Shown: positions 1 through 46,750 of the stretch, piece after piece
Layout: every line of letters begins with the position of its first letter
Numbering within the stretch: the first letter of the stretch is position 1
Assembly: GCA_010093745.1 (NCBI GenBank)
Contig: MU005960.1
Location: forward strand, 124,001 to 185,555
DNA from: Piedraia hortae CBS 480.64
Taxonomy: Eukaryota
DNA length: 61,555 nt
Direction of reading: 5' to 3'
The notes under the pieces: generated by a model
The model's database searches: none
Told to the model about the DNA's origin: nothing
What the model saw: the letters and a program-made list of their open reading frames with translations, nothing else
Position numbers and translations under genes: made by a program

Positions 1-889
1 AGCTTGGGCAACCCCCTGAATAGCCGCAGCCAGTCTTCCGTATCGACTGACAATTTGGCGCGGGATGAAAGGCCTACATCATCAATATAGAGATAGGATA
101 GGTTGCCCAGCTTGGCAATCGAGCAAACGTGTCGCTGACGATGAATGGGAATCCATCACCTGGGCCCTAAGCAAGTTTCCTATCCAGCTTCGTCAAGGTT
201 GGAAAGGTGACCAAGGCCTCGAAAAAGATAGATAACGAAAGTGTAATCGTAGTCCATGCAGACGTCATCTCGCTTTGTACTTTGGTGGTTTTTTCTACCG
301 AAAAAGGCTCGTCTGAGTTGACAATACACTGGAGCAGCGATTGACATATGTACAGCTGAACTGTTAAGCGCCGCAGCTTTTTGCGCCGGATGAGTGGTAC
401 GAAAAAGCGCTTAATGTACGATTTTCTGATGAAAAAGGGCAGTGCAACATGCCCCAGATTCGGAAAATGGGCAAGGATAGCGTACGGCCACATGCTCTCG
501 TAGGGAGTGCAATGCGCCTTAAGCTCAGCAAGGCTTTTGGGTATGCTGAGCAAAGATTTCATGTTGATGCAACGTACCAATGAACCTATTTCCAACGTCT
601 TTAGACGTAGCAATGCGTAGTCTTTCATTCGGTCCGCCCACAAAGCATCGGGCACCAGGTGTAGTACCTGGACCAAATCGACAAAATTCTGGCGCTCGTC
701 TTCGCGTACAAGTCCCAGCGTCCAACCATCCACGTCATTCCGGAGGATTTCGCTCCCTGGCCCGCGCCAATCAAAAGCTCCTAAGCGAGGTTCGGTCTCC
801 CAGCGATATTTGTGCGATTTTGAGCAGGATCTCGTCTGGTACGTGGGACCTGCTTTGCTGCGCAGATGGGCCTTGTTGCTGTTAGGCAT
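1..889 (-). pseudogene. F-box/LRR-like paralog copy 1, frameshifted, running off the window start
   Basis: ORF 167..889 (DWRGPGSEILRNDVDGWTLGLVREDERQNFVDLVQVLHLVPDALW...PLIRRKKLRRLTV) aligns by eye with 2228..3502. Similarity to the paralogs continues past the stop at 167: nt 7-70 resemble 5308-5370. Confidence 0.7.
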
Positions 890-1222
890 TTAAAGGCCCG
901 CTATAGTGTTGCATTGCTGCAGAGTGCGGTTGCTGTGGGCAATGCGTGATGTCTTCGCGATTCGTGGAAAAGTTTGAGTTCGATGACGACAGAAACAATA
1001 TTTGATTTGAACGCAGAAGCTAAGAAGGTAGATAAAGCTGTCGACCCGTACATACAACCCGGATGCCAAAGTCATGTTTTCCTACATTGCGTAACCTATA
1101 CCCCACCTTCTGACCTGAGACCTCTTTTAAAAGATGTCAAACCTTCTATCAACATGAGTGCATTCGCCACATCGCATCTTCCTGTTCCCGTATGTATGCG
1201 GTGATCCAAGCGTGACGCTATG

Positions 1223-1512
1223 AGTGTACGATGCCACTACGCGACACCTCATATACAGCTGCACCCTAGGTTTTGTCCACACAGAGGTTTCCCTCATGGT
1301 CATGTCGCATGCGACATTGTGAGTGCGCCCTGCTACTGTTTGAGGTGACTCATGGAGTAATACTGCATGCTTACGTTCATACGATTTATGACTCTTCATA
1401 GGAGGCTACGCACTGGCTTTCCGGTCCAGAATATATTCTCCGATGTCCCCCTCGTATATACACTTGTATTCACTCATACACACAACTCTACTCACTATCC
1501 ATCGTTCTCACT
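1223..1512. repeat. Duplicated ~290 bp non-coding block, copy A
   Basis: agtgtacgatgccact...cagctgcaccctaggttttgtcc...ggtcatgtcgcatgcgacat...ccatcgttctcact recurs in the same orientation at ~5962-6288. Confidence 0.9.
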
Positions 1513-2227
1513 GGCATGTACCATCTGTTTCAGAAGTAGTATGCCATGCAGTGTCAGAATTTGGGAACTAAGGTATACTTATGGTTTTGGTATACCCGCT
1601 AACCCAGAAGATGAACACAGTCATTCTCGTTAAGAACCGGTCATGCTGCCCGTAGCACTGCAACGTCTGAACAGTTACATCATTGTCCTAGATTACTTTT
1701 CCAATTGCGGATTGGCAACTGACATGACAGCATATATGATAGCTGTCACTGTTCGCACGTCGCAGTCGTAATCTTTGAAAGACCCCGGTTGAGAAAGACC
1801 TAGGACACTTCTGTTGGTATATGCTCACGTCCTCATTACAATGAGGCTTCATGCCGACACCGCTGACAGTAATGATTAACAAATCTTCCCAGGTGAAAAC
1901 TCGAAAGAGACCATATATCAGGTCCACTGCCATTGAAACAGCACTACCTCACAGTTGTTCTTACCTGCACACAAGCCTTACCTAGATGAAAAACAGACAA
2001 GTAAACCATACTACACACACATAACACCATGGATATACACTCAGAAAAATGAGATGTAACAGAGAGGGCGGGTCAGAGCTTGATGGTACAGTATATCTCT
2101 TGTGCCTTGATATGCTGCCTATTCCCTCCAATAACTTGAGTAGATGCTCGAAATTCGATCGCGCGAGGCGTGTACCGTAAAGCCTCATAGATATCAAGCC
2201 AGATTATCAAGCCATATTGCCGGCGTC

Positions 2228-3502
2228 TTACTGATAAGAGACTCTCTGATGGTTGAAAATAAGTATTTTGGTGTCGCTGTCCAGCGAATCCGCGTCCCAG
2301 GATTTGGGCGCAATCGTCTCGAAGATCCGTATCGCTTTTTGCGGTATGTCCTCCACCGCCCAGTCTGTTAGCGCAATGCCCCCCAACTCTAGAAAAACTA
2401 GGTTCGGAAACAGACACCTTGTTTCGTCTTGAAAGATAGTCAAGTCTAGTGAGCTGGCAATGACGCATTCTTCCAACTTCGGGCAGCTGATTCCTAGACC
2501 TCTGAACGCTGTAGCATCGAAAACACCTTTTATGTCCAGATCAAAAACGGAAAGGTTGAGCAATCCGGTGAAAAGGCGTAGCCAATCTTCAGTAGAGACG
2601 AAGAACTCGTCAGGCGCAAATTCGAGATTGCCATCAAATGTTAGACGGGATAAATTGCTGAGCTTTGCGATCAAAGCAAGTGCATGGCTGTTAATTACTG
2701 GAGATTTGTTATCCGGGTTGCTGGAGATTGCCAAATGCACATCCTCCAAGGTTTGCAAAGTTTCTAGGGCCTCGAAAAAGACCGGTGATGGCTTTCTGGG
2801 CGCTATCCACAAGGTGGTAATATTGCTCTGTACTTTAGTAGCCTCTACCCCCGAGAGAGGCTCGTTTGAGTCGGCAATATATTGAAGGAGCTGTTGACAA
2901 GTGTACGGATTTACCTTTAAGCTCCGCAGCTTCTTGCGCCGAATGAGTGGCATGACAAACTGCTCAATCTGTAATCCTTCTATGTCAAAGAGCAGTTCAA
3001 TGTCCTCAAGATTGGGTAAGCGGGGAACGAGGGCGTACAAGGGCTGAACGCTGCTGATCTCAATCCCATGAAAGTTCACAATAGCGTTGATCTTGAGATG
3101 AACAAGACTCTTGGGTATACTGTTGTAGGCCCTTCTGTCAGTGCCACTCTTTGGTGGTGCTAATTCCAACGCCTTTAGTCGTGGCAGTGAACGATCCTTC
3201 ATCTGATATACCCACCAAGCGTCAGGAGCCAGACGCAAGATCTGGACAAAGTTTGCATGGTCTTGGCGTTCTTCTTCGGGTACATTTCCCAGCGTCTGAC
3301 TGTCCACGTCACCCCAAAGGATTTCAGTCCCCGGCCCGACCCAATCATGGCAGACTAGACAAAAGCTCCTAAGCGAAGCTCGATTGCCAAGCAAGCATTG
3401 TGCAACTTTGAGTAAGATTTCGCCCGGCAAGTGCATATTCCTCTGCCGCGCAGAGGTGTCTCGTTCTCCATTGGCGTACAAACGCTCGTTTGGTGATTGC
3501 AT
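2228..3502 (-). CDS. F-box/leucine-rich-repeat (RNI-like) protein, intact copy
   Basis: 424 aa ORF. N-terminal F-box-like LPGEILLKVAQCL...SLRSFCLVCHDW is followed by LxxLxL repeats (LPRLKALEL, LPNLEDIEL, LSNLSRLTF, CPKLEECVI, FPNLVFLEL). Confidence 0.8.
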   Translation of the reverse strand: MQSPNERLYANGERDTSARQRNMHLPGEILLKVAQCLLGNRASLRSFCLVCHDWVGPGTEILWGDVDSQTLGNVPEEERQDHANFVQILRLAPDAWWVYQMKDRSLPRLKALELAPPKSGTDRRAYNSIPKSLVHLKINAIVNFHGIEISSVQPLYALVPRLPNLEDIELLFDIEGLQIEQFVMPLIRRKKLRSLKVNPYTCQQLLQYIADSNEPLSGVEATKVQSNITTLWIAPRKPSPVFFEALETLQTLEDVHLAISSNPDNKSPVINSHALALIAKLSNLSRLTFDGNLEFAPDEFFVSTEDWLRLFTGLLNLSVFDLDIKGVFDATAFRGLGISCPKLEECVIASSLDLTIFQDETRCLFPNLVFLELGGIALTDWAVEDIPQKAIRIFETIAPKSWDADSLDSDTKILIFNHQRVSYQ

Positions 3503-4149
3503 GACTTCAGAGACTGTTTTTAGTGTGGAAAATGTGCTATTTTATTGTTTCGGGTGAGTGCGTGAAAGTATAAAAAGTCTGAGTGTAACAACATCTCAAC
3601 TAAAACCCAAAGATTGGCTGAGTCCCTGATCCAGAGCTCTGGGTTGTCATTTGGAGGTGGGGAACTTTGCGCCCCGTTTCCTGGTCTGACAACTGTCCCG
3701 ACAGCTGCCATACTGCTGTCAGAAGAACTACATGCTACGGTACTTCGGAGGAAATTGATCAATAACGAGGATGATCCGAACTGCTATCTAGTGGGGAACA
3801 CCAATACTATGAGCCAACGAGTTCTCTTTATCTACAGACGCATAATATCACACACCCTTAATTGATCCACCTTTCTCTCCTCCCTATGTTTCTGGGTGTT
3901 GACATTGTCGTATGCCGCTCCAGGTGGACCGGGTGTTACCGAGGGTCCCGGACGAACGGAACGGGACGTGGGCGGGTCTACGCGGTACGGGCCGCATCAC
4001 GCACCACATAGCTACCACCGATTTCGTGACGACCTTCAGGTCGTTACGTTCTGATCAATATAGAGGCTGTCTGAACCCATTCTGCACCCTCTGTGACATC
4101 GAGTCAGTTGCAGCCGGGGGTGAAAATGCGGGCCATCATGCCTTAAAGC

Positions 4150-4750
4150 CCTTGATAACTTTGGGCACTTGTGACGACTGCGGGGTGGGTGTTTAAGCCT
4201 ACCAATCTCATCAAGCCCTTATCTTTTAAACCGCAGAGTCGGGCCACGCGTTAGCAGGCGTGGTCGTTCCGGTGAACCCGTCGGCTCAAAGCTTCCAGGG
4301 TTTGTAGACTTCTTTCGAAAGAGGCAATTGAAAGTCCTTGGACTCTCCCAAAGTGCAAGCCTTGTTGGCTATTCCCGGCTATGATCTTCTTCGCTGCCGA
4401 TTCGGAGATGGACGCGCCCGAGTTTGTTAGATCTTGGAGGAGTATTTGGTCATTGCTCGGGCAACCCATCAGGTGCCGCTACCGGTCAAGCTACAGGAGT
4501 ACAATTGCCAACTGCTGGACCTGTCACTTTGCAGTCTCGAAGAGAAAAGTAAGCTTTATGGAACTTTCCGGTGATCGTGTAATGGCTGCATGCTGGTGCT
4601 GAGATGAGTGCTCACTTTAAGATCTACGCGGTCAACGAGTATTGTCAGACATCTATCGAAGGTAGATAGGGCGCTGGGCTTTCCTGAGATTAAGCTTTGA
4701 TGAAGATGTGTTCTAGAGGGCTTGGTCACATCATGGGAGGTGATCACCGC
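4150..4750 (-). mobile_element. Possible heavily degraded Ty1/copia pol fragment
   Basis: Broken frames read R*RHLMGCPS (cf. LWHxRMGHP) and ACTLGES (cf. CxxCxxGK). Motif-level resemblance only. Confidence 0.25.
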
Positions 4751-4928
4751 AATGCAGTCGGACTCGTGCTAGAATGTGGGGTGGCTATGGTAAACCTTAA
4801 CTTTCCTCGACGATAATCGGAAGGACTCGTCTAGATGACGGAGAGTTGCTACTAGATAGGCGATGCTTGCACGAAATACGGCCAAAATCGGTCTAGAAGC
4901 GGCTAGCGGCATGAGTACCATACGGCAC

Positions 4929-5935
4929 CTATGCATCTGGATCAAATGGCTCTACCTCTCCATTTTCTGCCCTCGTCTGCGAATCATTCTCGAAAACAAC
5001 CCGGGTCGCCACGCCGAACGGATCATTACTCCGCATGTCAAACGAGCGGAGGTTGGAAGCGATGGTTTTGGAAATTCGTACCGCTTCATGCGGGATGTCC
5101 TCCACATTCAAGCCGGTAAGTCTGATACCACCCAGGCCGAGGTCAATGAGTCTTTGAAGCAGGCACCTTGTTTCACCTTGGAAGAGGGCCAAGTCCAGTG
5201 AGTCGGCGATGTAAATTTCTCGCAATTTCGGGCAGTTGGTTGCTAAATCCATAAGCCTTGTAGCTTCGAAAACACTTTTAACGTTCAGACAAAGGAGGAA
5301 AGTTTGCGGCAATCCCTTGAATAGCAGCAGCCAGTCTCGACTGGAGACAGAGAACCTGGCACGGGAAGAACTGGCTGTTTATCCAAAATATAAGGATTTT
5401 AAGTTGCCGAGTTTTGCAATCGAAGCAAAAGCATGACTATCGATGATGGAAGAACAGTGCCCTGGGCCATTTGCGACTATAAAACCCACATGCATCAGGG
5501 TTTGGAAGGATCCTAAGGCCTCGAAACGGACAGGTGACAGCTTTTCAATCGTGCCCCCGAATATGTTCATCACGCTATCTACTTTGGTAATCTCTGCCAC
5601 CGAGAACGGATCATCTGAATCGGCAATGTAATTAAGCATCATTTGACATGTAAACGGACTAACTGCTAAGTGTCGCAGCCTGTTGCGCCGTACGAGTGGT
5701 ATGACGAACTGCTCGATTTGCGATTTTTTCCAAGTCAAAGGGCAGTACGATCTCCTCAAGATTGGGTAAGCGGAGGATGAGTTCGTACAACGAATCAATG
5801 TTCTCGATCCACTAAAAGTTCACATCAGCGTTGACCTTGAGATGAACAAGACTCTTGGGTATACTGTTGTAGGCCCTTCTGTCAGTGCCACTCTTTGGTG
5901 ATATTAATTCCAGCACCGTTAGTCGTGGTAGCGAA
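4929..5935 (-). pseudogene. F-box/LRR-like paralog copy 3, 5'-truncated and frameshifted
   Basis: ORFs 4929..5312 and 5379..5798 match the C-terminal and middle parts of the 424 aa protein (CPKLREIYIADSLDLALFQGETRCL; QIEQFVIPLVRRNRLRHL). Nt 5815-5935 are nearly identical to 3071-3191. Confidence 0.85.
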
Positions 5936-5961
5936 TGTTGGCATGAAGTCTCGTTGCTATC

Positions 5962-6288
5962 AGTGTACGATGCCACTGCGCGACACCTCTTACACCAGCA
6001 GCTGCACCCTAGGTTTTGTCCTCACAGAGGTTTCCCTCAGGGTCATGTCGCATGCGACATGGTGAATGCGCCCTGCTACTGTTATGAGGTGAGTCATGGA
6101 GTAAGACTGCATGCTGACAGTCTTACTGCATGTATGGCCACTTGCTTATGGTCATACAATTGATGACTCTTCATACGATGCTACGCATGGGCCTTCCAGC
6201 CCAGAATATATTCTCTGATGTTCCCTCGAAGATATACTTGTATTCACTCATGAAAACACATCTCTACTTTCCATCCATCGTTCTCACT
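5962..6288. repeat. Duplicated non-coding block, copy B
   Basis: Direct repeat of 1223-1512 with substitutions and small indels. Confidence 0.9.
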
Positions 6289-6549
6289 CATACATTCTAT
6301 CTGTCTTTTTCAGCGAGCTCTGTTAGGTTGTAAATTGTTCTGGGCTGCTTGAAGTTGTAATGTTGAAATTTGGGGTCCGTTCAGTTTCCTCAGGCAGGAG
6401 CCAGTCCTAATAGGGTTAGGATGATCGGTAACTACAATAGCCCCCTGCACTTGGGAGTCCAGCCCAGGATAAACAGTCTCAACCTTGGAAACATCATTGG
6501 TTAACGACTAAATTCACCGGCCTCCGTTGGCATCATAAGAAACACGTCT

Positions 6550-7403
6550 CTACTGTACAAACTTCCCACGCCCCTTCAACTTTCTCAACTCAGCCCTCTG
6601 CTCAATTGACTCTCTGAGCAAAGTCACATCCAGACTCTGTTTCTGATCCTTAACATCCGCATAACTAGCGAAACGTGTTTTCTCCTCATCATCACTCTGT
6701 TTGGGATTAGCAACACCAGCAACGGTATTGACCATACCCTCGCGGATCAGATGTAAAATCAGCTCGTTGATCGTGGCGCCCCTATTTCTGCTCTGAGCAA
6801 GAAGAACACTAGACGCAATGTTTTGAACTCGTCTTGCCTGCACCGGACCGCCATTATCAGGCTGCACGACGGTCCAGCCCATCAAAGCCATGTATTTTTC
6901 CGCTAAAGGGAAAAACATGATTGCTGGACAGGCCTGCAGGAATAGTGTCAATGAGACGTTGATGGTATCGCCGAGACGGTCGATGGCTGCTGCCATGCGG
7001 ATCCTGCGATTGTTAGCCGTGTTGGGGAGTTAATTGAGGGGTATGCTTGCCATTTATCTTTTAGCGGATCGGCGCGCCAGAACACGGCGACGAGACGATC
7101 CGCGTCGAGCGGGGATTCCACGGGAATGCACGGGCGGTAGTAGTCTGGTCTTTAGTCGGTGGGAGTTGTGATGAGGTTGGAAATGCTTACGGCAAAAGAG
7201 GTCGTACGCGTGTGGTTTGAGGGGGTAGTCGGAAAGAGGGAGATCTGGCTGCACTGTAAAGCCTGAAGGCACAGGATTGAGGCTGGCGGCCTGCGGAGGG
7301 GGAAGTCAGTTTGGTGAAACAAGATGTATTACGATAATGGAGCTCTTACCTCAGCGGGGGTTATGGGGTGAGATGCATTGTTCCCGTTTGCAGGAGCAGC
7401 CAT
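6550..7403 (-). CDS. Diverged mating-type MAT1-1-1-like alpha-box protein, 4 exons (7403-7350, 7290-7191, 7144-7051, 7003-6550), 233 aa
   Basis: Manual splicing. Introns are 7349-7291 (GTAAGA..CTGAC..CAG), 7190-7145 (GTAAGC..CTAA..CAG) and 7050-7004 (GCAAGC..CTAAC..CAG), giving a 702 nt open frame. The product contains LFC^HYYRPCIP...LVAVFWRADPLKDKW^IRMAAAIDRL...LTLFLQACPAIMFFPLAEKYMALMGW...TINELILHLIREGMV. This follows the alpha-box pattern FRxYY...LWxxDPxKxxW..MAxA...LxxF...CP.....YL...GW...SVxDII....GY. Confidence 0.8.
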
Positions 7404-7995
7404 GGTTAGTGTTGTCTGTTGGATGTTGGTGTAGGAGAGCTTGCACGGTGTCACACGCCGCTGGGTGCACTTAGTTTACCTAGTGACGCGACCAGTCGCA
7501 CATGTGCTAGTCGAAACTTCCCAAAGGTGCAGTGTTTTACCAAGACGAAGTATTTCGTGTACAATTTGGCTGCTTTGAGACGTAGCTTGGCGCGAATCAA
7601 AATTTCAGCTCGTTGGAGCATTAACTGACTTTTTCCAAGTGAAAGTCCTCAGTGTCGATAATAATAATTCACCTAATGATTGAGTTTGTGCGCATCTTCA
7701 TGTCCATAGATTGATGTAAACAAAGTTGGAGGGACGGTCAACTTGAACACCCCCGCGAGATTAATAGTGGCTTTCGCCTCACGGTCTGAGGAAAAGTGGA
7801 AACGGAGTCATATTTGGGTTCCATCTTCAACCTCCACTTTCCTGAAGTGCCAAGGAAAAGTGCAAAGATATGACTGAAACCGATGGATGCTCACCACAAA
7901 CCCACACTCTCACCTCAACGATACAAAACTCTATCCTGCCCTACCCCATACCCATCAACAATACCGCGTTCCCCCAAACAGAGTATGTAGGATAC

Positions 7996-9381
7996 TCACT
8001 TCGGCCTAACATACGCCTTCCTCTCAACGACACCTCCCTGTTTCGAAAACTTAACCTTGGGCTTCTTCTTCTTCTTAACCTTCACAGTCTCATCCTCGCT
8101 ACTCTCAAAAAACAGGTCCTTGTCATCCCCCTCCCTCTCGGCCTTCTTCCTTCTCCCCTTATCCCCAGGTCCCTCAGCCCCCTTATCCTCCCCCTCAGTC
8201 TCCCCCCCAAGATGCAACCTCTCCGAAATCAACGCACCCCCCTCCCCAAATCCCCTGGCCTTATTAAACCACACCTCCGCACCTTTCAAGTCTCCCGAAA
8301 TTACCAACGCGCGACCAATCGCAAACGACGCATCACATACGAGGATATGGTTTGGTCCATACTGTTCTTCAGCAGCTTCCAGAGCGCGTTTGGCGAGTTG
8401 GAGGGCAATGTGGGCTAGACCGTGGCTTGCGCAAAATATGGCATAGTCGATTGTTACGCGGAGGGTGTAGGGGTGTTTGTTTCCGTAGATAGCTAGGAGG
8501 CCTGTTAGGGAGGTCGTGAAGTTCTTTTTTGCGTCTGAGGTGGCGGCGGAGGGCAGGGAGGTGGTTGCTGCGGGTGGGAGGGGGGAGAGGTTTAGTGGCA
8601 AGGGGTCGGTGGGGAGATCAGCGGTTGGGGCGGTGGTGGTGTCTCCTTTGTGAGGATTTTTGGAGGTAGACGGATCCCCTTTGGTATCTCCATTGGAGGC
8701 AGCTACCGTGGCATCAGCTTCCTTCCCGGCGAATGAATCCCCCTTACGGACACCCGCGGTAGCAGCCTTCACATAACTCCGCTTAGCAGCTCCAGCCGCC
8801 TTAGCAGCCTCTCCCTTAGAATTGTCGTCGGCAGCAGAACCAGCATAACTCTCCGCTCCCGTAGTCCAATTTGCCGACGCCACGGCATTAGCCAGCGCAT
8901 GCGCCGCCTCCAGCACCTGGATACTCGTGTCGGCATAATGGGCCGCATAATTGCCATACACATAATCCAACTCCTCCACAACCCAACGACTCTTGTTATC
9001 CAGAAACCACACGTACGTAGCCATATGCTGCTTGATGTCCAGCACCACAACATCATCCAGGAGGAGTTCCTCCATCATAACTTCCAAAACAGCGCGGAGG
9101 AGATTGGCTGCATCGTTTAGACGGCCGAGGTAGGCGTAGATGAAGGCCAAAGTGTGCTTGGTTTCGACGACCATGGGGTGTGTGGGCTCGAAACCTACGA
9201 GGAGGCTGTAGATGGTTGCGCTGTAGTCTTTTGCGTAGGTTTGGAGGAGTTCAGGCGTGGGGTTCGGGATGTTGTGTTCCAAGAGTTTGCGGAGGGTGGG
9301 CTCGTGGTGCTTGAGGAGTTCGTGGTAGAAAAGGCGTTCAGACCGTTTGTTGGGTAACTTTGGGACGTTGATATGTGGCAT
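7996..9381 (-). CDS. TPR-like repeat protein (kinesin-light-chain-type repeats) with a low-complexity central insert
   Basis: Long ORF with a probable ATG at 9381 (MPHINVPK). Repeated helical units: GFEPTHPMVVETKHTLAFIYAYLGRLNDA, YGNKHPYTLRVTIDYA, YGPNHILVCDASFAIG. The stop overlaps a possible GTGAGT donor, so the 3' end is uncertain. Confidence 0.55.
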   Translation of the reverse strand: MPHINVPKLPNKRSERLFYHELLKHHEPTLRKLLEHNIPNPTPELLQTYAKDYSATIYSLLVGFEPTHPMVVETKHTLAFIYAYLGRLNDAANLLRAVLEVMMEELLLDDVVVLDIKQHMATYVWFLDNKSRWVVEELDYVYGNYAAHYADTSIQVLEAAHALANAVASANWTTGAESYAGSAADDNSKGEAAKAAGAAKRSYVKAATAGVRKGDSFAGKEADATVAASNGDTKGDPSTSKNPHKGDTTTAPTADLPTDPLPLNLSPLPPAATTSLPSAATSDAKKNFTTSLTGLLAIYGNKHPYTLRVTIDYAIFCASHGLAHIALQLAKRALEAAEEQYGPNHILVCDASFAIGRALVISGDLKGAEVWFNKARGFGEGGALISERLHLGGETEGEDKGAEGPGDKGRRKKAEREGDDKDLFFESSEDETVKVKKKKKPKVKFSKQGGVVERKAYVRPK

Positions 9382-9560
9382 TTTTTTTTCGTCTTGGTTA
9401 TCTTGATGGGGAAGAGTAAGCTTTTGCGTGTGCTTGGAATTTCCCAAAGAGGAAGGTGCTTGATGACAGAATTTGTGTGTTGACTCGTTCTCAAGATCGA
9501 ATTGGTAAAAGGATTGCTCCCGAGCAATCTATACGCATGTGCTGTCATGGCTTTTTCCTA

Positions 9561-30961: not shown

Positions 30962-31660
30962 ATGCCAGCCCTTCCCGATAAGTCCGACCTCCAGGCCAAT
31001 CCGGCCCTCAAAGCGCCCAAACGCTCGCAGCCATTGTTTCGCCCGGGCACCGGCCAGGGCGAGGCCCTGGTCATCTTTGTGCTCGGCGGGCCGGGTTCCG
31101 GCAAGGGCACGCAGTGTCACAACATCGTACGCGACTATGGATTCCGCCATCTCTCAGCCGGGGATCTTCTTCGCGAAGAGCAGGACAGGCCAGGCAGTGA
31201 GTTTGGAGACATGATCAAGACGTATATAAAGGAAGGTCAGATCGTGCCCATGGAAGTCACCATTCAGCTGCTGGAGAATGCAATGAACAGCACCATTGAA
31301 TCTGGCGGACGCAAGTTTCTCATCGATGGCTTCCCCAGAAAGATGGACCAGGCCATTGCGTTTGAAGAGAAGGTCATTCCCAGCAAATTCACTGTCTTCT
31401 TCGACTGTCCCGAGGAGACTCTGCGTGAACGGCTCCTCAATCGCGGTAAGACAAGCGGCAGGGCCGACGACAATGAAGAGAGCATCAAGAAGAGGTTCCG
31501 AACCTTCATTGAGACTAGTATGCCCGTGGTGGAGAAGTTCGAGTCTGAGGGCAAGGTCGTAAAGATTGATGCGACCAAGAGCCCCGAAGGTGTTTATGAG
31601 GACGTTCGTGCCGAGTTCAAGAAGAGAGGTGTCCTTCCAGTGGGAGAGTCGGGCAAGTAG
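30962..31660 (+). CDS. URA6: UMP-CMP (uridylate) kinase
   Basis: VIFVLGGPGSGKGTQC, HLSAGDLLREEQ, GQIVPMEVT, FLIDGFPR, RGKTSGRADDNEESIKKRF. Confidence 0.95.
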   Translation: MPALPDKSDLQANPALKAPKRSQPLFRPGTGQGEALVIFVLGGPGSGKGTQCHNIVRDYGFRHLSAGDLLREEQDRPGSEFGDMIKTYIKEGQIVPMEVTIQLLENAMNSTIESGGRKFLIDGFPRKMDQAIAFEEKVIPSKFTVFFDCPEETLRERLLNRGKTSGRADDNEESIKKRFRTFIETSMPVVEKFESEGKVVKIDATKSPEGVYEDVRAEFKKRGVLPVGESGK

Positions 31661-32123
31661 TTTCCGAGCCAGGTACATTCTTTTAGCCTCTGCAAATCCA
31701 TGATTCGCTATATGCTTATTTGAATGAGTACTCTGTCAATTTTAGCTTCTTGTACAAGGTTCAATAAAGATGGGAGATGCGATGATGTAGCACTGCCCCA
31801 CATTCGCCAAGACCACACCACAAACGGTGATGTGGCACCATGCCCATAAGATCACTGGAAAACCACAGAATCACGACGGCTGGCGACTTTACATTGGTGC
31901 TTTCTGTTGCGTTCTATAGTTCCGCGCTCATGAAGATCCCCTGGCTTGTTTTTAACCTTGACTTGATTGATTGTGTACTAATGAGCAGCGGCACCTCACA
32001 GGTGTGTCAGTATACACGCGTATCTAGAGCTACAAGAAAATTTCTGAGTACTCGAACCCTGGTCATGGATGTGGGTCATCACCTGCGGATCGCTCCGTGG
32101 CGAACTGCACAACAGACTGGTTA

Positions 32124-32384
32124 TTTTTTTTTTTAACGTCCGGACAGAACCCCGAGCGGGGAATCTGCAGCCTCCCAATGGGGCAACTAGACGTGTCCCC
32201 CCTATTGGGGAACAGAATGATTTACAAAGGCGCAAAGCACCAGCGGGCCCGAAGTCGGACCAACACTACCCCGGTTGGCCTAAGTATCTCATTGGGTGCA
32301 GCCTCAAGGGAATGGGCTCACCAAACCCCTTCCCCGACACGTCAGCAGCGGGGCCGGGAAGAGGCCCCCGTAGCACGGGAACAG
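32124..32384 (-). mobile_element. Possible poly(A)-tailed non-LTR retroposon (SINE or LINE 3' end)
   Basis: GC-rich ~250 nt segment ending in poly(A) on the minus strand, with a hairpin cccaatgggg...cccctattggg near the tail and GGTTA on both flanks. Confidence 0.35.
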
Positions 32385-33123
32385 GTTAACGAGTATATTA
32401 TCAATTATCAGCCCCAATAGCGGCGTCGTCAAGGCACCTTGTAGGTTCACCACTTCTCTGGGACACATGATTTGCTTCAGTTACTCACATGTATCAGTGA
32501 CTGATTAAGTTTAGCGGCCTCATTTCTCAATGCTCTGCTGCTTCAAGCGGCCCAGTCAGCGATAGCAGGAAGACTGCGGGATCAATCAGGATGCAAGACC
32601 ATCTACGGTCCCAAACAGTTTGTACTCGTCATAGATATCAACTAGACCACGATGTAGGCAAGAACCCGTCAGCTGATGAAATACTGTTCCCGTCAGGCCT
32701 CGTCGTTCTGTCAAAGCCAAACCAGTGCCCCACACTATGGCGAAATTGATTTGGATATCAAAAGTTTGCGTCCAGAGCTGCGAGAACCTCTCAGGCGCTA
32801 CTTTGGGAAATTCACAGAAACCATCCCTAACCCCTCCCCGTCCCAGCTCCCCACTACTGAAGGTCACAAAAGTAATAATCTACCTTCACCTCCTCCCCCC
32901 TTTCATTTTCAACGAAAAGCCATGGAGTGATACACGGGATCTGGCCGTCTCTCGAACCAATATCCCACCGATCCCTCTCAAGGCTGTCTACGCTAATCCT
33001 GTTGAGAAGGTCTACCGTGGATTTTACTGGTTCGGTCAATAGTCTGAACAAGGGGTATTGTAACCGACTCACCTGTACGTTTGAACATACGCCAACTGGA
33101 GGTTCTCCGATCGCCCTGAACGG

Positions 33124-34107
33124 TTAAGGTTTTCGAGATTTGGAGTGTGGAATGCTAGGAATTTGTCGGCCTTTAGTGCGTAATTGGGGCTGAAAAGGGC
33201 CATGGATGAGGGGTTGGATGGTGAGGGCAAGGACTGACCTATCTTCATAGTACGTGAGGCTTAACTTTAGATGGAAAGTTTCTAGGTGTGGGAACATCGG
33301 GTTAGGATTGTGGGGGAGAGTGCGGAGTGAAAGGTAGACATTGGAAAGGGAGCAGTAGGTGAGCTTGCGGCAGCGGAATCCGAGCTCCGCTAGGGATCTG
33401 TGCGTAAAATTGTTAGGTCCCCGGAAACTGAACTCTTGGAGGTCAAGTAGGCGTGAGAGTAAGGTAGTGAAATTCCCACCAGCCACTAAACTGTGGTTTA
33501 AGTTGTTGATCATCTTTCCAGTTAAATCCTTTGTCCTTGCTTTTGTGAGGATGCAAACGCTGTTTGATGTGGAGCGGGCGCAGGTTTTTCAATTCAGATA
33601 TGATTTCGAGGTGCTTCGGACAGTCTGGTTTGTAGGTAGGAATTCTGAAAAGGGGATACCCTTGGACCATGTTTCCAAGCACTATTTGATGAGCGTCATC
33701 TCTAATCTTTCAAGAGAATGCAGTGGGTGTAGGCATTCGAATGCTAGCTGATACGGCGGGGTGGCTGTGGTGAAACATAAAGTTTTGAGTCTTGATGAGA
33801 TGCGGTAGAAGCCATTCAGTCGATTCAGGTTGAGTGTAAGTCCTAATTCTTAGAAATGGTCAAGAGCCGAGTCGACCAGAGAGTGGACCTTCGTAAATGG
33901 AGGATGTTTCTACCACTCCAGCGCGTTAATGCGAAAGCACTTCAAGTTTCTCAGGTTAGCCAATCGTGCCCCTAAGTAGACCAAAACTGAGAAGTAACCG
34001 AATGGCAACTCAATGTATAGAATGTGCAAGTGCTGCAGTTTGCTAATGGATCGCAGTAGTCCGTCAACACTCCGTCCGTCATACGCTCCAGCGATGGCTA
34101 GATTCAT
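33124..34107 (-). pseudogene. Degenerate LRR (RNI-like) gene fragments
   Basis: Broken frames: LQHLHILYI...LANLRNLKCF, LKNLRPLHI, LLDLQEFSF...LAELGFRCRKLTYCSL...MFPHLETFHL (cf. FRGLGISCPKLEEC...LFPNLVFLEL). Confidence 0.55.
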
Positions 34108-34138
34108 TAGCTGAGGGCATTTCCTATAGGATAATTTT

Positions 34139-34366
34139 TGTTACGGCGAGGCTGTGTGTGCGCGGGACGACCCGCGCCGCCTAAGCGCACAGGGAATTTG
34201 ATTAACCGACGCGCCCTGCTAGTTATTCATGGCTACGCTCGCTACCACGCACGAATGAACGGCGCTTCTGGATTGGTTTATAGTATTCTAGCTTCCCAGT
34301 AGATAGCAGTCTGGACTGTCCTCGTTGTTGGGACTTATTGAACCTTTTCCTCTGAGCACCGTAACA
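34139..34366. mobile_element. LTR of a retrotransposon (228 bp)
   Basis: Bounded by a perfect 8 bp inverted repeat TGTTACGG...CCGTAACA and adjacent to a gag relic. No matching target-site duplication. Confidence 0.75.
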
Positions 34367-34369
34367 CAG

Positions 34370-35200
34370 TTGGTTCATCACCCGGAACAGAGATGCGATT
34401 TATCGGCTTGCCCTCCGTCGTCGTCTTGACATAACAATCTTTGGCGACGTGACCAGGTTGATGGCAACGACAGCACTTGGCTGGGCCGTTTTTGCGCTTG
34501 CGGTCTCGCCTCTAGGCTTTGTGCGACGGTAGCTCAGTGTTGCCCTTGGCAAATTCCTGGAGAGCCTCTACCCGCTTCGCATTTTCCTTCCGAACCTCGT
34601 AGGAAGAGGTGTCGGCATGGATAAGGGCGAGGTGCACCGCGGGCTTAATGCTTGGTAGAAAGTTGCATGTCGCGTTTGGGCCGACCAATTCAGTTGGTCC
34701 GCAGGGGAATCGAGCTCTGCTATGAGATCGGGCAACGTTGTACGATGCCAAAGGCGGGTGACGCGAAGCTCAGCCTGCGCCTGTCGTTCTTCGTCACTCT
34801 CGTCAAATACCTCCGAAAGAGCTGCCTCTAAGGCGCTCTAGTTCTGGAGTAAGACTGAGCGTACTGGGACGGTACGTAAGAACCACTCTAGCGCCTTGCC
34901 GCGCAATTGATTGGCGGCATATGCGCATTTAATAGTGGAGTCGCGTAGGTCACCATCCAATAGTTCCTTCAGCCTAATATACATCAAGAATGCGGGGGAT
35001 GTCTTGTGGACGACCCGAGAAGGTACGTCCGCCTTCCGCTCGAAACTCGACGCGCTATCATCCATAGTTACCTCCTCGTTTCGCCTCACCGAGAGTCCTT
35101 CGTCTGAATCTTTGGAATACTCCTCTTCGCTTGGTTGTGTGTAGGGCCAGAAACCAGCCTCCAACCGTTTGTGCAGTGAAGTATGCGGGGGATGGTGTGC
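34370..35200 (-). mobile_element. Degraded retrotransposon gag with zinc knuckle
   Basis: Minus strand ~34476-34434 reads CCRCHQPGHVAKDC (CX2CX4HX4C). Upstream KCAYAANQLRGKALEWF is gag-like. Stops and frameshifts lie between. Confidence 0.75.
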
Positions 35201-38103
35201 GGATCGGAGAGGGATGCCAGATGGCGGAATATCGCGACGCAGTTGTGGCGAGGAACGAGCTAGGGTGTTGTTTTGAATAGAAAGATTGGACGACTGTGGA
35301 GGGGTGAAAAGATAAATTGTAAGTCACTATTCTTCCTCTCAAGGACTGACTTTATATACAATAAATTCCGATGCGCACAGCATTCCGTTGAGGAGCCGAA
35401 CCTCTTTTCAACCTCTTCACCAGCCTTTTCTTTAGCCACCCCAACATCTGCAGATTATTTGTCTTAGTGCGTAGGGCAACTTGGTGCTGGAAGCTACCGA
35501 GGAGCAACATGACCAGCGTCGGCTTAGTCTCAACAGGTGTCAGACCCGCTCATAAGCAATCACGAAATAGAATACACACACACATAGCCACACATATGTG
35601 TGCCTCAAACACCATTGCCTACCAAATAATCCGATATCACGTTGTCCTGCCGTTTTAACGAAGCCCGTTGAGTGAGGGGCTGATGACGCAACGTTGAGCT
35701 CTGTCCCACATTTGCCAAGACCAAAGCACAGTGCCCCAAAATCCGCTGGAAATTTCTGATGCTCTTCTTCATCACAACCTGCTTGCCGGCGTCTAGCGTC
35801 TGGCGTCTGACGATGGGCCCCCCAAATCACATGAGGGTCACCCAACTGTAATCAAATTCAAGTTGGGAGGGCTAATCCTAGTGATCTTACCCTTTGGGAA
35901 AGTCATACCGTGAAGATTGCACACTCATCAGGTATGAATTCCATCTTACTTGCTCTCTTTTTATTTCTGACCGACATCATAGCCAAACCAGAGCCGCCAC
36001 TACGCACCTCTACTCTGCTCGACTTTTCCGTTATATCCCCGACGGACACGGCCACTCCGACCCCCGTTTCGCTCCCTCGGCTGCCGGCATGTTCCAACCA
36101 TTTTCCTGGTAGGAGAGGGAGGCTGTGCTGGGTACGTCGTTCGGCTTTACGGTCTCGGAGGAGGTGGGGCTTTGCCGATCATAGTCGACTTGGTCAAGGA
36201 GGCCTCAGGTTCCTTCGGAGGAAGAAGAAGGAGGGAATGGCCAAGGAGGCGATGTTCAAGACGGCGGAGCAGGCGGAGATGCAGGCGGCCCTTGTCAACC
36301 TTCTTCTTGCCACCGCCGACGCCTACGCCACACAGCACGGTCTTAACGAGCATTGGCAACGCGAAGCCATAGGACATGGGACGAGCCGTCCGAGCGATTC
36401 CAGAGACCATCACCTGGCTGAAAATCTGCACCGCCGGCCATGCCATACGAGCCCACACTATGGCAGGGGCGGCAGCTGTTAACCTCCAGCCCCCTCCCGC
36501 ATGCAGTGCTCCGTTTCTCGCATCCAATACACTGGTCGGCAAGCCAGCCTCGACGGCTAAGCAAGCAGAGAAGACCACCGCTACCATAACACCTGGGTTA
36601 TGCGGGTGGTAATCCCGACTTGTGCATTCTGAGGAAACGGCAGCCGCTCCGTTGTGCAGTGATTCAGACCCGCCACCACGCCTGAACAACAAATCGCAGC
36701 ATACGAATTGTCATCTCGGAGGCATATCACCGGTTTTGCCCATGGATCACGAGACCGGCAAATTCTAACTCCTTTACCTTATACACCGACTGAGCTGCTT
36801 TTACCATGTCATTCCAAATGGATTGTGCGTCTCAATGTCCGGAGTGGCGCTGTAGCATTGCAAACGTATCGTTCATTAGGATGTTAGTTTTCGCTTTACG
36901 TGGATGCTCGTCTCAATTCTCATTCGTCTCATGTAGTTACTTGAAATACTGTAAGCTCTCGTTCTGATCGGAGGACATGGGGTACATCAATGCCGCTTTC
37001 TCTCGCAGCGTTTGTTGTCTCCTTGATCGCATGATTACCTCTTGCGCCCTTCTCAACTTCCTAGGTGAGCTGATCCCTTTCTTCGAGTCGTGTCGGATGA
37101 TGTGTGAATTCCGAGACGTGAAGCGATAGTTGGACGATGTCGGGCAAGCAAGATCCAAAAGTTAGAACAGAAGAGCTGGTGAAACCCGGCTTCTGTTCAA
37201 AAATCGGAAAGATGTTGGCGGCAAAGTTGCGACAGATTAGTATGAATAAAAATTGTTTCTAACGCACTCATTGGCTTCGTCCCGAAACTCAGGCTACCTG
37301 ACATTAGATTATATGCGTCTCAGCCACAAATCAGGTTGGCATGGGATCATTGACGTTGATTGGATGGCGAACGGTGTATTCCAGATTCACGTTTTGAGGG
37401 AATATTGAGGTTGACCCGGGGAGAGGTTTCAGCTGAGCTCGTGTTGGCGGGGTGGGTGGCTGATGTGGTTTTTCTAAGAGTGCCCTTTTCCCGCCTCAGA
37501 ATTTTGCGGCTTTGGTTATGATGTCTTGAATAGGTCGCTTTGGTGGGAAGGTTTGAAGGTGATTTCTCTTTCTTTTACGCTCATGTGAATTGACGAGGCT
37601 ATTGCGCATGAGGGGGGGTGAGGAATCGCCGATAGATGAAGGTGCTTGGTTGCCCTGGCGCGTTGGCTGTGGGAGGGTTATCGGGATCAACAAGTAGTTG
37701 TATGAGTTCATCCACGGACAGTGTTGTATGGAGTCGCACATTTAGTGTGGCTGTCTGCGAGTTTCGTGCAGATAAAAGACATGCAGTTTAGTTCCTGGAG
37801 GCCAGATAGAAGGGCGGTTGAATTCTTGTCGGTAAATTTGGTTGATTATGGTCTCCTCCGGGTAGGTATCTTCCAGGAATGTCCCCAACAGAATATATTT
37901 CCTCAATCTGTCCGTGCGTTGACAAATTTTCGCGCGTAGATATGTCCTATAGTAACCCACACCAAACACCACGCGCCCTGACAAACACTTGCCTCCTCCT
38001 GTTGTTTTCAAATCAGTCACCCTACGCAACCAGTCGCGTGTGCTTCCACACCAAGCTCCTTTGTCCCTCCTACAACATCTTCTGCGCACTTGCAACGTCC
38101 GCC

Positions 38104-38616
38104 ATGTTTAACCCTCAGGGACAGACCAGCGCCGGGTACGCCAACGCTAGGTCAGTCAACTTCGGGAACTCCATCGCCGGAAACCCCAACGTCGCCAATC
38201 CCAACTCTGGAAACCCCAACATCGTCAATCCCAACCCCAACCCCAACATCGCAAATCCTAACCCCAGCAACCTCTATCCGCATAGCTTCCAAAACGGACG
38301 CAGACCTCACCCAATACAACCCGATTCCAACGCCATGATGCAAATCGTCAACACGATGCTTAACCGTGCCGAACGCACCTCATTCCTCCAGGGTGGACTC
38401 GCCCAATTGCAAGACGAGATTGAAAATTCCCCGAATTTGAATGTTTTGTTCGCTCCTGGCCGCATCGCTACCGTTTCCGTCGACCCCAGCTATGTCCCTC
38501 CATCGGATCCTGGAGCGATGTTCACGCCGTCGAATTTGTATAATTCCGAGCAGCCGGTTCCGGAGAAGAGGAAGAGGCGCGCCCCGGAAGATGTGCAGGA
38601 GATGGAGATGGATTAG
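38104..38616 (+). CDS. Hypothetical 170 aa protein with Asn-Pro repeats and a basic C-terminal patch
   Basis: GCCATG start, GNPNVANPNSGNPNIVNPNPNPNIANPNP, EKRKRR. Shows the same C-rich to G-rich signature as the conserved genes. Confidence 0.55.
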   Translation: MFNPQGQTSAGYANARSVNFGNSIAGNPNVANPNSGNPNIVNPNPNPNIANPNPSNLYPHSFQNGRRPHPIQPDSNAMMQIVNTMLNRAERTSFLQGGLAQLQDEIENSPNLNVLFAPGRIATVSVDPSYVPPSDPGAMFTPSNLYNSEQPVPEKRKRRAPEDVQEMEMD

Positions 38617-41600
38617 GTGTTGTTCAAGGTTTAAAGAGGTGTCGTGGGGCGGGGTTTTTGCGATGCTGGTTTGCGGCGCTCGTAATATATGGACGGGTAG
38701 GTAGAGTAGTGTAGCGATTGGAGGGTGTGATATTACGGGTTGGATGCTTTGTTGGATTTCCCGTGGAGGATAGTGGTGAGGTCAACATGTCATTGCCTTG
38801 ATGATGTAGATGATTGATTTACTGGACGCCGGTCTCTGCTCGTGGTGAAGGGAAAGGTAATTGTAATGATGAATGGATCTGCGGCAGCGCAATGGAGAAC
38901 ATTTAGTGTTGGGTTGAACCTCCCATTGCTATTCCGGAGCATTATGTTTTGTTTCAGAGTGTCAGCCTCGTAAATCTTCAGGCCAGATTTCGATATACAA
39001 GTTGCACGCCTGGGGGCTTGCTGTGTATCGCCAATCCACGTTCCTAGATGTTTTCCAAGCTTCTCCAATTATGGCGGGATGATTGGTTCAATCCGCATTG
39101 ATCCCTTGAGGTTTGGACAAAATCAACGCCCTTGAACCTTGCTGTAGTGCACTTTGTGAAAAAGCTTTCGTTCTGATGGATCACTTCGAAGCGGTCCCTC
39201 GAACCCTTTCGGACTTGATGTATCGATCCATTGAGGTGACTGTAAGGTTGGATTCAAAAGCGTTGATCGGGGGGTGGCTTTGCCCGCGGGCAAGAAAATG
39301 TGAAACGTTGGTTTCACCCTTGTTAAGAAGTCGAATGTTGCACCTTATGTGGAAAATTGTTGAGATACCCTTTCGAGATGGTGATTGCTTGGCAAGAATG
39401 ACGTGGGGTAGAGTACATTAGCCCGCTTTATCGTCAAGGCTAACTCAACTTAATTTAACCTCAGCCGCTGATCGAACCAATCGACATCAGTTAACTCAAC
39501 GCTATCACCTTGCCATGCCGTCGGAAAGTCTGGAGTTTGCGGAGCTTGCTCTCCTGAGTGGGGACCGACCAAGTGAACCTACCATCTCGAGGATATATAA
39601 CACCCCGGCACCTGGACATATCTATCCCCTGCTTGAACATGAAGAACGCAGTTTCTGTTGTTGAGAAGTATCGACGCCAGATCTCGGCCTGATGACAAAG
39701 ACTATACAAGGAAAAATCCTGTATAGCAAAATACTCAAAGAGTATGGCAAAGAGGACAGTGAGGCAATGGAGCCATATTTGGAATTGTTTGAACAAAGAA
39801 GCTAATGGTATATAAGCTCGCTGCTGAACAGCAGGGAATAACAATTCGAACAACTCAGTCTTCAGAACGATTACGCTACGCAACAGCTATCTTCCAACAG
39901 TTTCCACGACGCCTACTGAACCAATTTTGCCCAAGATCCTCCGCGACTGACAATAATGTCAGATGGAAAGACGTCCGCATTAGGGCCCATGCGTACCTAC
40001 AACACGCTGCTGTCAAAGTATGAAGCATTCGAGCGGCTCACAGCAAAGCTGCAGGACTTGAAGTACCTTCTTCTCGGCAGGCTGATGTCCGAGTTACTCA
40101 TGGGGCATTCGAACACCGATCACCAACGTCCTTGCTGAAAATAACCATTTACATTCATCAAGCCCTTGAAGCTGAACAACCACCGTCTACCTCCCACTCA
40201 TCGCCAACCCCAAGCCGCATGTTGCGTTTCTTTCCATCGTAGGGAAATAGATCCGCCGTGAGCCGTCGTCGCAAGACCAAATTATGTTTGGTCAATGGAT
40301 GCACACTGCAAGCTTGGATGCCGGAAGATCCAAATTCTTGCAGCCATGGACCTACACTTATCGTTTTAGTTCTGGATGCATAAAACAAACTTCCAGATAG
40401 GCCTTGGCATGCCTTTTGAGAGCCCAGTTTCACTTTGATTCCCAATGAAATCCAATTAGTCCGGTTTCTCGGCTCGATGTAGATTGCTTGAGCTGTTTCA
40501 ATGCCGCAATCCTAGAGTTCATCTGTCTGATCTTCTGCTGAGCGAAACCCGAATGCCGCATTCGTACGGGTGACCATGCCGAGCGACTAGGACAAGAAAA
40601 ACCAAACACGAGGCGTTCAAAGTGATGGAAAAGATTCCTGGGGCGTTGGAGAGGCATGAAGAGGATCTGTTGTGTCATCATTTCCAAGCGATGGTTAAGA
40701 ATTGTCCAACGCAAACCAATCCGGCAGGTACCCTTCCGCCGACATAGTCGCTTTCCATGCGGTCTTTTCGGACTCTTTATGGCTACGCAATGGACATCCC
40801 GGAGTGGGAGAGCAAGCACCGTTGTCATCTTCACCGGCAATTGGGCAACGATCATACAACGCTCGGATGCGTACAAGTATAAAGACGACCAGCAAGCGCG
40901 CACCTTCGCGACATTCCAGGGCCATCGACGGGAAGATAAGCGCATCAACAGCAAATGCACAGTTTGTGGTGTACATCAAGCACGTCCACGAAGCGAATGC
41001 AAAGTACTTCGAGACTACCGGCTCGCATCACCGGATCATGAGATGAACCAGCCTGTGATGTTTTGCGTCCTGACTTGGCTCAACGAACCAGCAAAAGCAT
41101 TGAAGGCCGAGAATTGGTTCGACCCGCAAGCGAGGGTCTCCCGACAAGGCACCTTCGTGCCAAAGCCACACCGACCAAGGTCCCGAACACCCCTCCCTGA
41201 TCTTCGAGCAACGTACCAGACTCCTATGCCAAACCTCGGCATAGCAACAACATCAATGGCAACTGTAATTGCATCCCAAACAGCCTGCATGACAGTTGGC
41301 TATGGGACAGCGGCACAGAACCCCCATATCTGCAACAACCGATAAGCCTTCGACACGTACAAACTGTACAGCACCCCGATAATCACTCCATCTCCAGCCA
41401 GACGTTTTGGAAACATCTAGCTGCGAGACAGAGTGGTATGGGATCCGCCGAGTCTACACAAATGACTTGCTGCAGCGTGTACAAGTCGAAGACTTAAAAG
41501 CTCGAAGGTGCATCGACTAGCTGAGAAAGTGGACGATAAGTTGGATCTAAGATGATGCAAGGCAGTTGTGCTGGAGAGGTTAGAATGGAGAAAGAAGGAA

Positions 41601-41674
41601 AACGGTGAGATAAATCAAAAGTCAACCCACCGTCCTCCCACGGCGCGATCACAAAACCACTCCCATAAGTCTAG

Positions 41675-46200: not shown

Positions 46201-46750
46201 GCTGTTGGGGGGAGCTTGGAGGGTTTGGTGGATGATGGATGATGTTGCAGAGTTGGCCGCTTGGGGCTAGCGGGCAGGGTCCGCTGAAACTGTGACGACA
46301 GATGTGCCTGCAGATGGGGAACCTGTACGGGCTGTAGTTTGTATGTAGCCTTTCTATAGACATGTACAGAGCTTTTACTTTCGCGCCATCTGTCACCAGC
46401 TTTTGGCTGTGCTGCGTGGCAGCTGAGTAGATCGCTGTGCCTTACCTTCCCTGCCAAGTCCATAGACAGTTATTCCATAGTATAAAACCCCCACAAAACT
46501 CTTTTTCCCAGCTATATGCCCTCCCAATCATCTCAGCCGGCATTGCTGCCCTGAGCGTACATCAGTCATGTATGTAGACCATGTACACGATCCTTGCATG
46601 CAGACCACCCGATAAAGTACATAGAACGTAGAACAAGTATAGTAAAACAGGTACTACAACGAAACCAAATACATACATAACTCCCCAATCAACCCCCCCT
46701 CCCCCTCCCTACTAACCCCCACCCCCCTCCCTCTCTCTTCCCAAGATTCC

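Follow-up and report, generated by a model that had tools for sequence, protein, structure and literature searches.

We report that a 61.5-kb stretch of genomic DNA from Piedraia hortae CBS 480.64 (contig MU005960.1; hereafter, the window) carries, on its minus strand between positions 7403 and 6550, what its sequence makes nearly certain to be an intact four-exon gene of a filamentous ascomycete, encoding an extremely divergent alpha-box protein that descends from a MAT1-1-1 of the Pezizomycotina type. This descent is indicated because three hallmarks of such genes have all been kept: the phase-1 intron before the YY residues, the sequence in which the structural motifs occur, and the motif downstream of the domain. 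Joined, the four exons form a coding sequence (CDS) of 702 nucleotides (nt) that specifies 233 amino acids (aa) plus a stop codon. An original prediction, made from the letters of the window, had proposed a hidden MAT1-1-1-like transcription factor gene at this site with introns of 59, 46, and 47 nt, and our translation is identical to its peptide letter for letter. The family is known, and the member is new and atypical: its domain is non-basic, it has an extra GC-AG intron in a tryptophan (W) codon, and it has neither detectable relatives nor MAT neighbors in the window. Weighing the comparisons described below, we lean somewhat toward a diverged extra or relocated copy and away from a classical MAT1-1-1.

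Profile comparisons link the spliced protein to alpha-box proteins

When single exons were scanned with Pfam, exon 4 matched PF04769 (MATalpha_HMGbox) with an E-value of 0.001 and 18.9 bits over profile positions 104-174 (gathering cut-off, 28.1 bits). Exons 2 and 3 gave no Pfam match, and no exon matched the HMG_box family PF00505. The alpha-box is an HMG-derived three-helix domain with an added helix, according to PMC8022922, which cites Martin et al. 2010 and Jackson et al. 2013. Unlike MATA_HMG and HMG-box factors (MAT1-2-1, MAT1-1-3), the window protein matches specifically the alpha-box profile.

For comparison, reference genes were fished from public metagenome contigs with the alpha-box motif L W xx DP xxxx W xxxx K x Y/W S xx R D, written as a degenerate DNA pattern. 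This yielded 28 loci, all of which contain an alpha-box-like translation, and the 16 distinct reference open reading frames (ORFs) tested on PF04769 all scored between 81 and 146 bits. Once duplicates and L004, a degenerate copy interrupted by stop codons, were dropped, 17 distinct reference genes remained. We then searched the joined window protein with phmmer against 2701 six-frame ORFs from the 28 loci and the window, and found that the alpha-box ORF of every one of the 28 loci outranked the best decoy, with L017 (35.8 bits) and L020 (31.8 bits) scoring highest. Against L014, a reference without the intron before YY, the alignment covered residues 37-202 and placed FCHYY on FRSYY; within it, exon 2 residues 37-52 aligned with the KRPL..NSFIAFRS arm of L014.

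A hidden Markov model (HMM) built from the 17 references, with the window protein left out, gave a clearer separation in a searched set of 4707 sequences. The joined protein scored 49.6 bits (E 1.1e-13), with HMM positions 44-182 lying on residues 50-186, compared with 7.8 bits (E 0.72) for the best unrelated six-frame ORF and 5.1 bits (E 4.6) for the best of 2000 shuffles. Exon 4 alone scored 28.7 bits (E 2.8e-7), and exons 2-3 alone 12.7 bits (E 0.022). The alignment of the joined protein crosses the junctions of introns 2 and 3 without gaps and runs on past the domain, where TINELI...EGM falls on the SVxDI...GY motif of MAT1-1-1 proteins. Moreover, hhalign aligned exon 4 with the 17-reference alignment at 95.6% probability (E 1.1e-8), over a stretch free of the residues that had been used to fish the references. 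Judged from these comparisons, the protein is a true homolog of the alpha-box (PF04769) family, and the homology that the original prediction had proposed stands.

The splice structure preserves the family intron

Features of the gene model are collected in Table 1, and intron 2 is the one that bears most directly on ancestry. A GT..AG intron of 46-62 nt, in phase 1, splits the codon right before YY in 14 of the 17 references, where this codon encodes S, C, T, or N. In agreement, PMC13152902 notes that in Pezizomycetes a Ser or Cys codon of the alpha-box is interrupted by a conserved intron, so the conserved phase-1 intron that the original prediction cited is borne out. Intron 2 of the window gene (7190-7145) divides a histidine (H) codon 1+2 right before YY, exactly the position and phase of the family intron, as had been proposed. 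Because it coincides in both place and phase, this intron provides strong independent support for common descent. The three references without an intron before YY (L010, L014, and L019) form a closely related group in which PLNSF[MI]AFRSYY is contiguous, an apparent intron loss within the family.

To compare splice junctions, in-frame and stop-free alternatives lying at most 45 nt from each proposed site were scored on the reference HMM, which gave 20 model entries, with the proposed gene model counted three times among them, once per intron. The GC-donor junction of intron 3, already picked in the original prediction, scored 49.6 bits, compared with 31.9 bits for the next in-frame model and 27.4 bits for the sole GT-donor alternative, and homology favors it by 17.7 bits. 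The proposed junction of intron 2 also ranked at the top, by a small margin (49.6 versus at most 48.0 bits). For intron 1, nine alternative models scored equally (49.5-50.0 bits), and homology cannot pick among them. Exon 1 falls outside the HMM and has no homology support. An upstream exon is required because the exon-2 frame lacks an ATG between its upstream stop and exon 2, and the proposed start codon, in the context ACCATGG, is the first in-frame ATG downstream of a stop. We therefore regard exon 1 and intron 1 as the least secure part of the model, with exon 1 plausible and the exact intron-1 junction putative. We are confident, on the strength of the alignments, of the protein's homology and of the model for exons 2-4. 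A CTRAC/CTAAC-type branch-like site precedes the acceptor in all three introns, which are predicted to be spliced in vivo.

Codon usage was scored as log-odds trained on 8576 codons from Pfam-supported ORFs of the window. The proposed frame was the best of three in all four exons, and every frame of all three introns scored negative. Exon 4 reached +31.2 bits and exon 3 +7.0 bits (versus -8.5 and -14.7 bits in its other frames). The scores of exons 1 and 2 were weak and close to zero, yet still the best of their three frames (for exon 1, -1.2 bits versus -7.5 and -12.1 bits). Over the whole CDS, the score was 0.153 bits per codon, within the range of 0.059-0.248 found for five training genes from the window. 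We also observed a 7-codon upstream ORF at 7503, 100 nt ahead of the main ATG. Were transcription to begin near 7592, where the X2 contig (Table 1) ends, this ORF would be part of the 5' leader.

These data bear on the possibility that a 148-aa ORF (the exon 4 piece), real or spurious, happens to be extendable through splice-like signals and is unrelated to alpha-box proteins. Such a coincidence could account for the empty single-sequence searches described below, for the neutral codon scores of exons 1 and 2, and for an intron 1 that homology does not fix. It would have to produce by accident a score of 49.6 bits where decoys reach at most 7.8 bits and 2000 shuffles at most 5.1 bits, the hhalign probability of 95.6%, a match to the independent Pfam model at E 0.001, an alignment that crosses two junctions colinearly and without gaps, and an intron 2 that equals the family intron in position and phase. 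We consider this explanation highly improbable.

Table 1. Coordinates of the predicted alpha-box gene and of associated features in the window
Feature	Coordinates	Strand	Description
Exon 1	7350..7403	-	54 nt, 18 codons, ATG at 7403; N-terminal tail, outside the domain
Intron 1	7291..7349	-	59 nt, GTAAGA...CAG, phase 0, ACTGAC 5' of the acceptor
Exon 2	7191..7290	-	100 nt; degenerate alpha-box N-terminal arm; ends ...DLFC plus base 1 of the H codon
Intron 2	7145..7190	-	46 nt, GTAAGC...CAG, phase 1, in the codon before YY
Exon 3	7051..7144	-	94 nt; YY...FWRADPLKDKW alpha-box core; corresponds to about Pfam profile positions 56-86 in reference genes
Intron 3	7004..7050	-	47 nt, GC donor GCAAGC...CAG, phase 2, in the W codon; GCTAAC branch-like site 5' of the acceptor
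Exon 4	6550..7003	-	Second half of the alpha-box (LTLF, CP, YMALMGW), downstream motif TINELI...EGM, charged tail; stop TAG 6552-6550
Contig of run X2	6450..7592	.	1143 nt, colinear with the genome, all three introns present; run type (RNA or DNA) guessed
TPR protein	7996-9528		Upstream of the alpha-box gene

Conserved basic residues are replaced and core residues are kept

We next examined how far the protein has moved from its family. Thirty alignment columns are identical in at least 15 of the 17 references, and the window protein keeps half of them (F50, Y54, W74, D77, P78, W83, A87, A89, D95, L101, F104, Y120, G125, W126, and G172). Replacements are found at R->C51 (in FR), K->L64 (in QQK), S->D67, K->A88 (in AKAYS), S->D91, and R->G94 (in IRD), and they include four residues that are invariant in 17/17 references, all of them basic (R, K, K, R), which have become C, L, A, and G. 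The RPLN arm has degenerated: it reads Y-P-L, followed by a two-residue insertion and then H, and its L and N fall outside the alignment. With 9 K+R and 10 D+E, the 91-residue domain has an isoelectric point (pI) of 6.06, whereas that of all 17 references lies between 8.1 and 10.39. The set of conserved residues that characterizes the family, including the basic ones (RPLN arm, FR, QQK..S, AKAYS..RD), is thus incomplete in the window protein.

Overall divergence is similarly extreme. Identity to 31 family members is 14.7-27.8% over 139 aligned columns, compared with a median of 36.7% among the members themselves, and in a maximum-likelihood tree the terminal branch of the window protein measures 2.69 substitutions per site, about 10 times the median of 0.28. 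Pfam recognizes the 31-33-aa equivalent of exon 3 at 30-42 bits in 5/5 references and finds nothing in the window gene; for the equivalent of exon 4, the scores are 56-91 bits in 4/4 references and 18.9 bits in the window gene.

The residues that have been kept are mostly aromatic, hydrophobic, Gly, or Pro, and those that have been lost are mostly charged or polar. This pattern suggests that the fold has been kept and the surface, including the part that would contact DNA, remodeled. Retention of the aromatic and hydrophobic core residues would maintain the fold, and replacement of conserved basic and polar residues, leaving a domain that is no longer basic, would alter the DNA-contact surface. 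The protein may then be a regulator with altered or weakened DNA binding that acts, for example, through the protein partners of alpha-box factors.

A different outcome of the same history would be a relic of a duplicated or translocated MAT1-1-1 in the course of decay, a leftover open frame that has ceased to be spliced or translated to give a functional product. Many conserved residues are indeed lost, the protein, metagenome, and profile searches turned up no ortholog, no junction support was obtained, and a degenerate alpha-box copy with stop codons does occur in nature (L004). The structure of the gene speaks against decay: 233 codons over four exons contain no stop or frameshift, donor, branch-like, and acceptor signals are intact in all three introns, and codon usage in exons 3 and 4 is gene-like. 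The structural residues (F, Y, W, DP, W, L, F, Y, GW, G) have also been kept, with changes falling on charged and polar positions. At about 21% identity to relatives, neutral decay should have broken the frame; as all 233 codons remain open and the splice signals undamaged, the coding sequence has probably been under long-term selection. We judge a relic unlikely.

Close relatives and transcripts

Searches for close relatives of the window protein used exon 4 (150 aa) as the query. In a collection of 5.8 billion proteins, a word-indexed search among near lengths returned only the window's own 148-aa ORF, P0001, and among longer lengths, 517 candidates included none at an E-value of 10 or better. 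This exon 4 piece is the only product of the gene in that collection, and in this sense the gene is hidden, as the original prediction had described it. An exhaustive phmmer search of 1.84 billion representative proteins returned P0001 and a spurious repeat protein, P0002, only. A scan of metagenome contigs gave 243 pattern matches, none of which was confirmed as a relative by tblastn. In the ESM Atlas, the best score was 0.87, with no alpha-box cluster, and all structure rows lay below a template modeling (TM) score of 0.4; the Atlas's own model of the exon 4 piece is poor, with a predicted local distance difference test (pLDDT) value of 0.42. Sequences in the PDB gave nothing better than E 2.1. 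A profile search with alignment A2 returned 20 non-self matches, all 20 of them ordinary PF04769 proteins and none near the window protein. An 8-residue string of P0001 occurred in none of the literature searched.

Two sequencing runs of one organism contain the stretch, X1 as a whole (X1 may be the source of the window) and X2 in part. None of the runs that cover the stretch is recorded as RNA. Because the type of the X2 run, from which a contig spans the gene (Table 1), is guessed, this contig shows neither transcription nor an absence of splicing.

The gene lies beside housekeeping genes

The window extends for 6.5 kb beyond the 3' end of the gene and for 54 kb beyond its 5' end. Upstream, beyond the TPR protein gene, lie genes for a prenyltransferase beta subunit, INSIG, an NLE-WD40 protein, a MutS homolog, a histidine kinase, NF-X1, cyclophilin, adenylate kinase, a RhoGAP, a PI4-kinase, AICAR transformylase, and a prenyltransferase alpha subunit. 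The 6.5 kb downstream hold only ORFs without a credible family and one weak F-box-like match. No ORF among those of the window that were scanned matched APN2, SLA2, an HMG-box gene, or MAT1-1-2 (Exo_endo_phos, ANTH/I_LWEQ, and HMG_box), and the Pfam gathering score was reached by 0/46 ORFs in positions 1-8000 and by 0/65 in 31.6-41.7 kb. The reference HMM detected no second alpha-box among the six-frame ORFs of at least 40 aa in the window. Recognizable MAT neighbors were also sparse around the references: in 15 reference loci with flanks of up to 3 kb, SLA2 was found at L023 only and MAT1-1-2 at L017 only. The missing neighbors within the window are moderate evidence at most against a MAT locus.

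Other features of these regions were noted. On the minus strand just downstream of the alpha-box gene, at 2228-5819, lie several ORFs of 146-437 aa that are without a family except for the F-box-like match (E 0.017, on 2231-3541), and these may be lineage-specific genes that share the region with the alpha-box gene. At 31600-41700, about 10 kb between the adenylate kinase and WD40 genes, the six-frame ORFs that fell short of the gathering score are all of at least 65 aa, and the best of them matched DUF1262 at 19.5 bits (cut-off, 27). Among the reference loci, L005, L006, and L013, which are related MAT1-1-1 loci of the KKALNAFVGFRCYY type, share a PNPOx_N gene at a distance of at most 3 kb, joined at L005 and L006 by an FCH-domain gene; their flanks represent a MAT neighborhood that differs from that of APN2/SLA2. 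The FCH-DEP-RhoGAP gene of the window (43297-46266) was considered as an ortholog of the L005 FCH gene and rejected (BLASTP E 3.6).

Relation to MAT1-1-1 and to its degenerate copies

The gene resembles MAT1-1-1 (MATalpha1, PF04769) in its domain order from the N-terminal arm to YL..GW, in the type of its downstream motif (S/T-[VI]-x-[DE]-[IL]...G-[YF]), in the phase-1 intron in the codon before YY, and in a size near that of the shortest members. It differs in its extra phase-2 GC-AG intron in the W codon, in keeping 15 of 30 conserved columns at an identity of 14.7-27.8%, in its domain pI of 6.06, and in having no MAT neighbors in the window. The description of the product as a MAT1-1-1-like transcription factor accordingly stands as far as alpha-box homology is concerned; given the extreme divergence, the non-basic domain, and the absence of a usual MAT neighbor in the window, its identity as MAT1-1-1 and as a working DNA-binding factor is no more than putative.

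The gene might still be the genuine MAT1-1-1 of the organism, a fast-evolving idiomorphic determinant in a MAT locus whose flanks are unlike APN2/SLA2. It is the sole alpha-box match among the six-frame ORFs of at least 40 aa in the 61.5-kb window, it keeps the family intron and the downstream motif, and short members do exist, PMC13152902 giving 254 aa for T. claveryi compared with 233 aa here. Most reference loci are likewise without a recognizable MAT neighbor within 3 kb, and one side of the gene is visible for 6.5 kb only. On the opposite side stand the replacement of four basic residues that are invariant in 17/17 references, a domain pI of 6.06 versus 8.1-10.4, a branch about 10 times the median, and a 5' side that leads directly into 54 kb of ordinary housekeeping genes. 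The stretch is also present in 2/2 runs of the organism, a weak point in that one of these may be the source of the window. Taken together, we see this as a serious candidate with clearly less than an even chance, and we favor a diverged extra or relocated copy.

Known degenerate copies of MAT1-1-1 offer a partial parallel to such a copy. Truncated or degenerate MAT1-1-1 fragments are reportedly kept in the MAT1-2 idiomorphs of Grosmannia and Ophiostoma, inside the MAT locus and beside the HMG gene. Like these copies and like L004, the window gene is a second, diverged alpha-box sequence of the kind missed as MAT1-1-1 by standard typing. Unlike the Grosmannia and Ophiostoma copies, which are said to be truncated and to adjoin an HMG gene, it has the whole domain, an open frame, and intact splice signals, and no HMG gene was found in the scanned parts of the window.

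L004 itself, on the plus strand of a metagenome contig (L004:812-1080), contains a degenerate alpha-box in which the arm reads ...SWMAPK for ...AFR, with no in-frame YY and with stop codons in the domain. Its second half is still recognizable, with 89.7 bits on the reference HMM, and it represents a natural example of a decaying MAT1-1-1.

Several observations weigh against an intact gene that has become a relocated regulator. Exon 4, at 18.9 bits, stays below the Pfam gathering score of 28.1 bits, and exon 3 has no Pfam match at all, in scans of single exons. The HMM columns W, D, P, and W that exon 3 matches are invariant by selection of the references, and they account for part of the 21 bits that the joined model gains. 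The sole X2 contig over the gene retains the three introns. The protein, metagenome, and profile searches turned up no ortholog with which selection could be measured, and the case for a loss of DNA binding consists of the residue changes and the pI. Finally, the missing neighbors are weak evidence for relocation, as the left edge of the window is near and APN2 or SLA2 could lie just beyond the 6.5 kb.

Implications for mating-type biology

Ascomycete mating types are usually called by similarity to MAT1-1-1 and MAT1-2-1, and an intact alpha-box gene such as this can escape such calls. In the literature searched, we found no description of an intact alpha-box paralog outside MAT. We give a slim chance to the most far-reaching version of our interpretation, in which a relocated alpha-box regulator is functional, evolves fast, and goes unseen when mating types are called by BLAST or phmmer.

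If functional, the gene is possibly a mating-type gene in an unusual place, which would bear on the movement of MAT loci and on species to which only one mating type has been assigned. It is possibly also the first alpha-box paralog found with its fold-forming residues kept and its basic surface given up, and a non-basic paralog of this kind would provide a natural test of the roles of the alpha-box apart from DNA binding. According to PMC8661429 and a preprint (10.64898/2026.08.06.743313), no MAT1-1-1 homolog has been found in Colletotrichum; cryptic alpha-box genes would matter in such lineages if present. In a lineage scored as being without MAT1-1-1, a cryptic gene of this type could be the missing alpha-domain partner; alternatively, it could represent a new class of non-basic alpha-box co-regulators that act outside the MAT locus.

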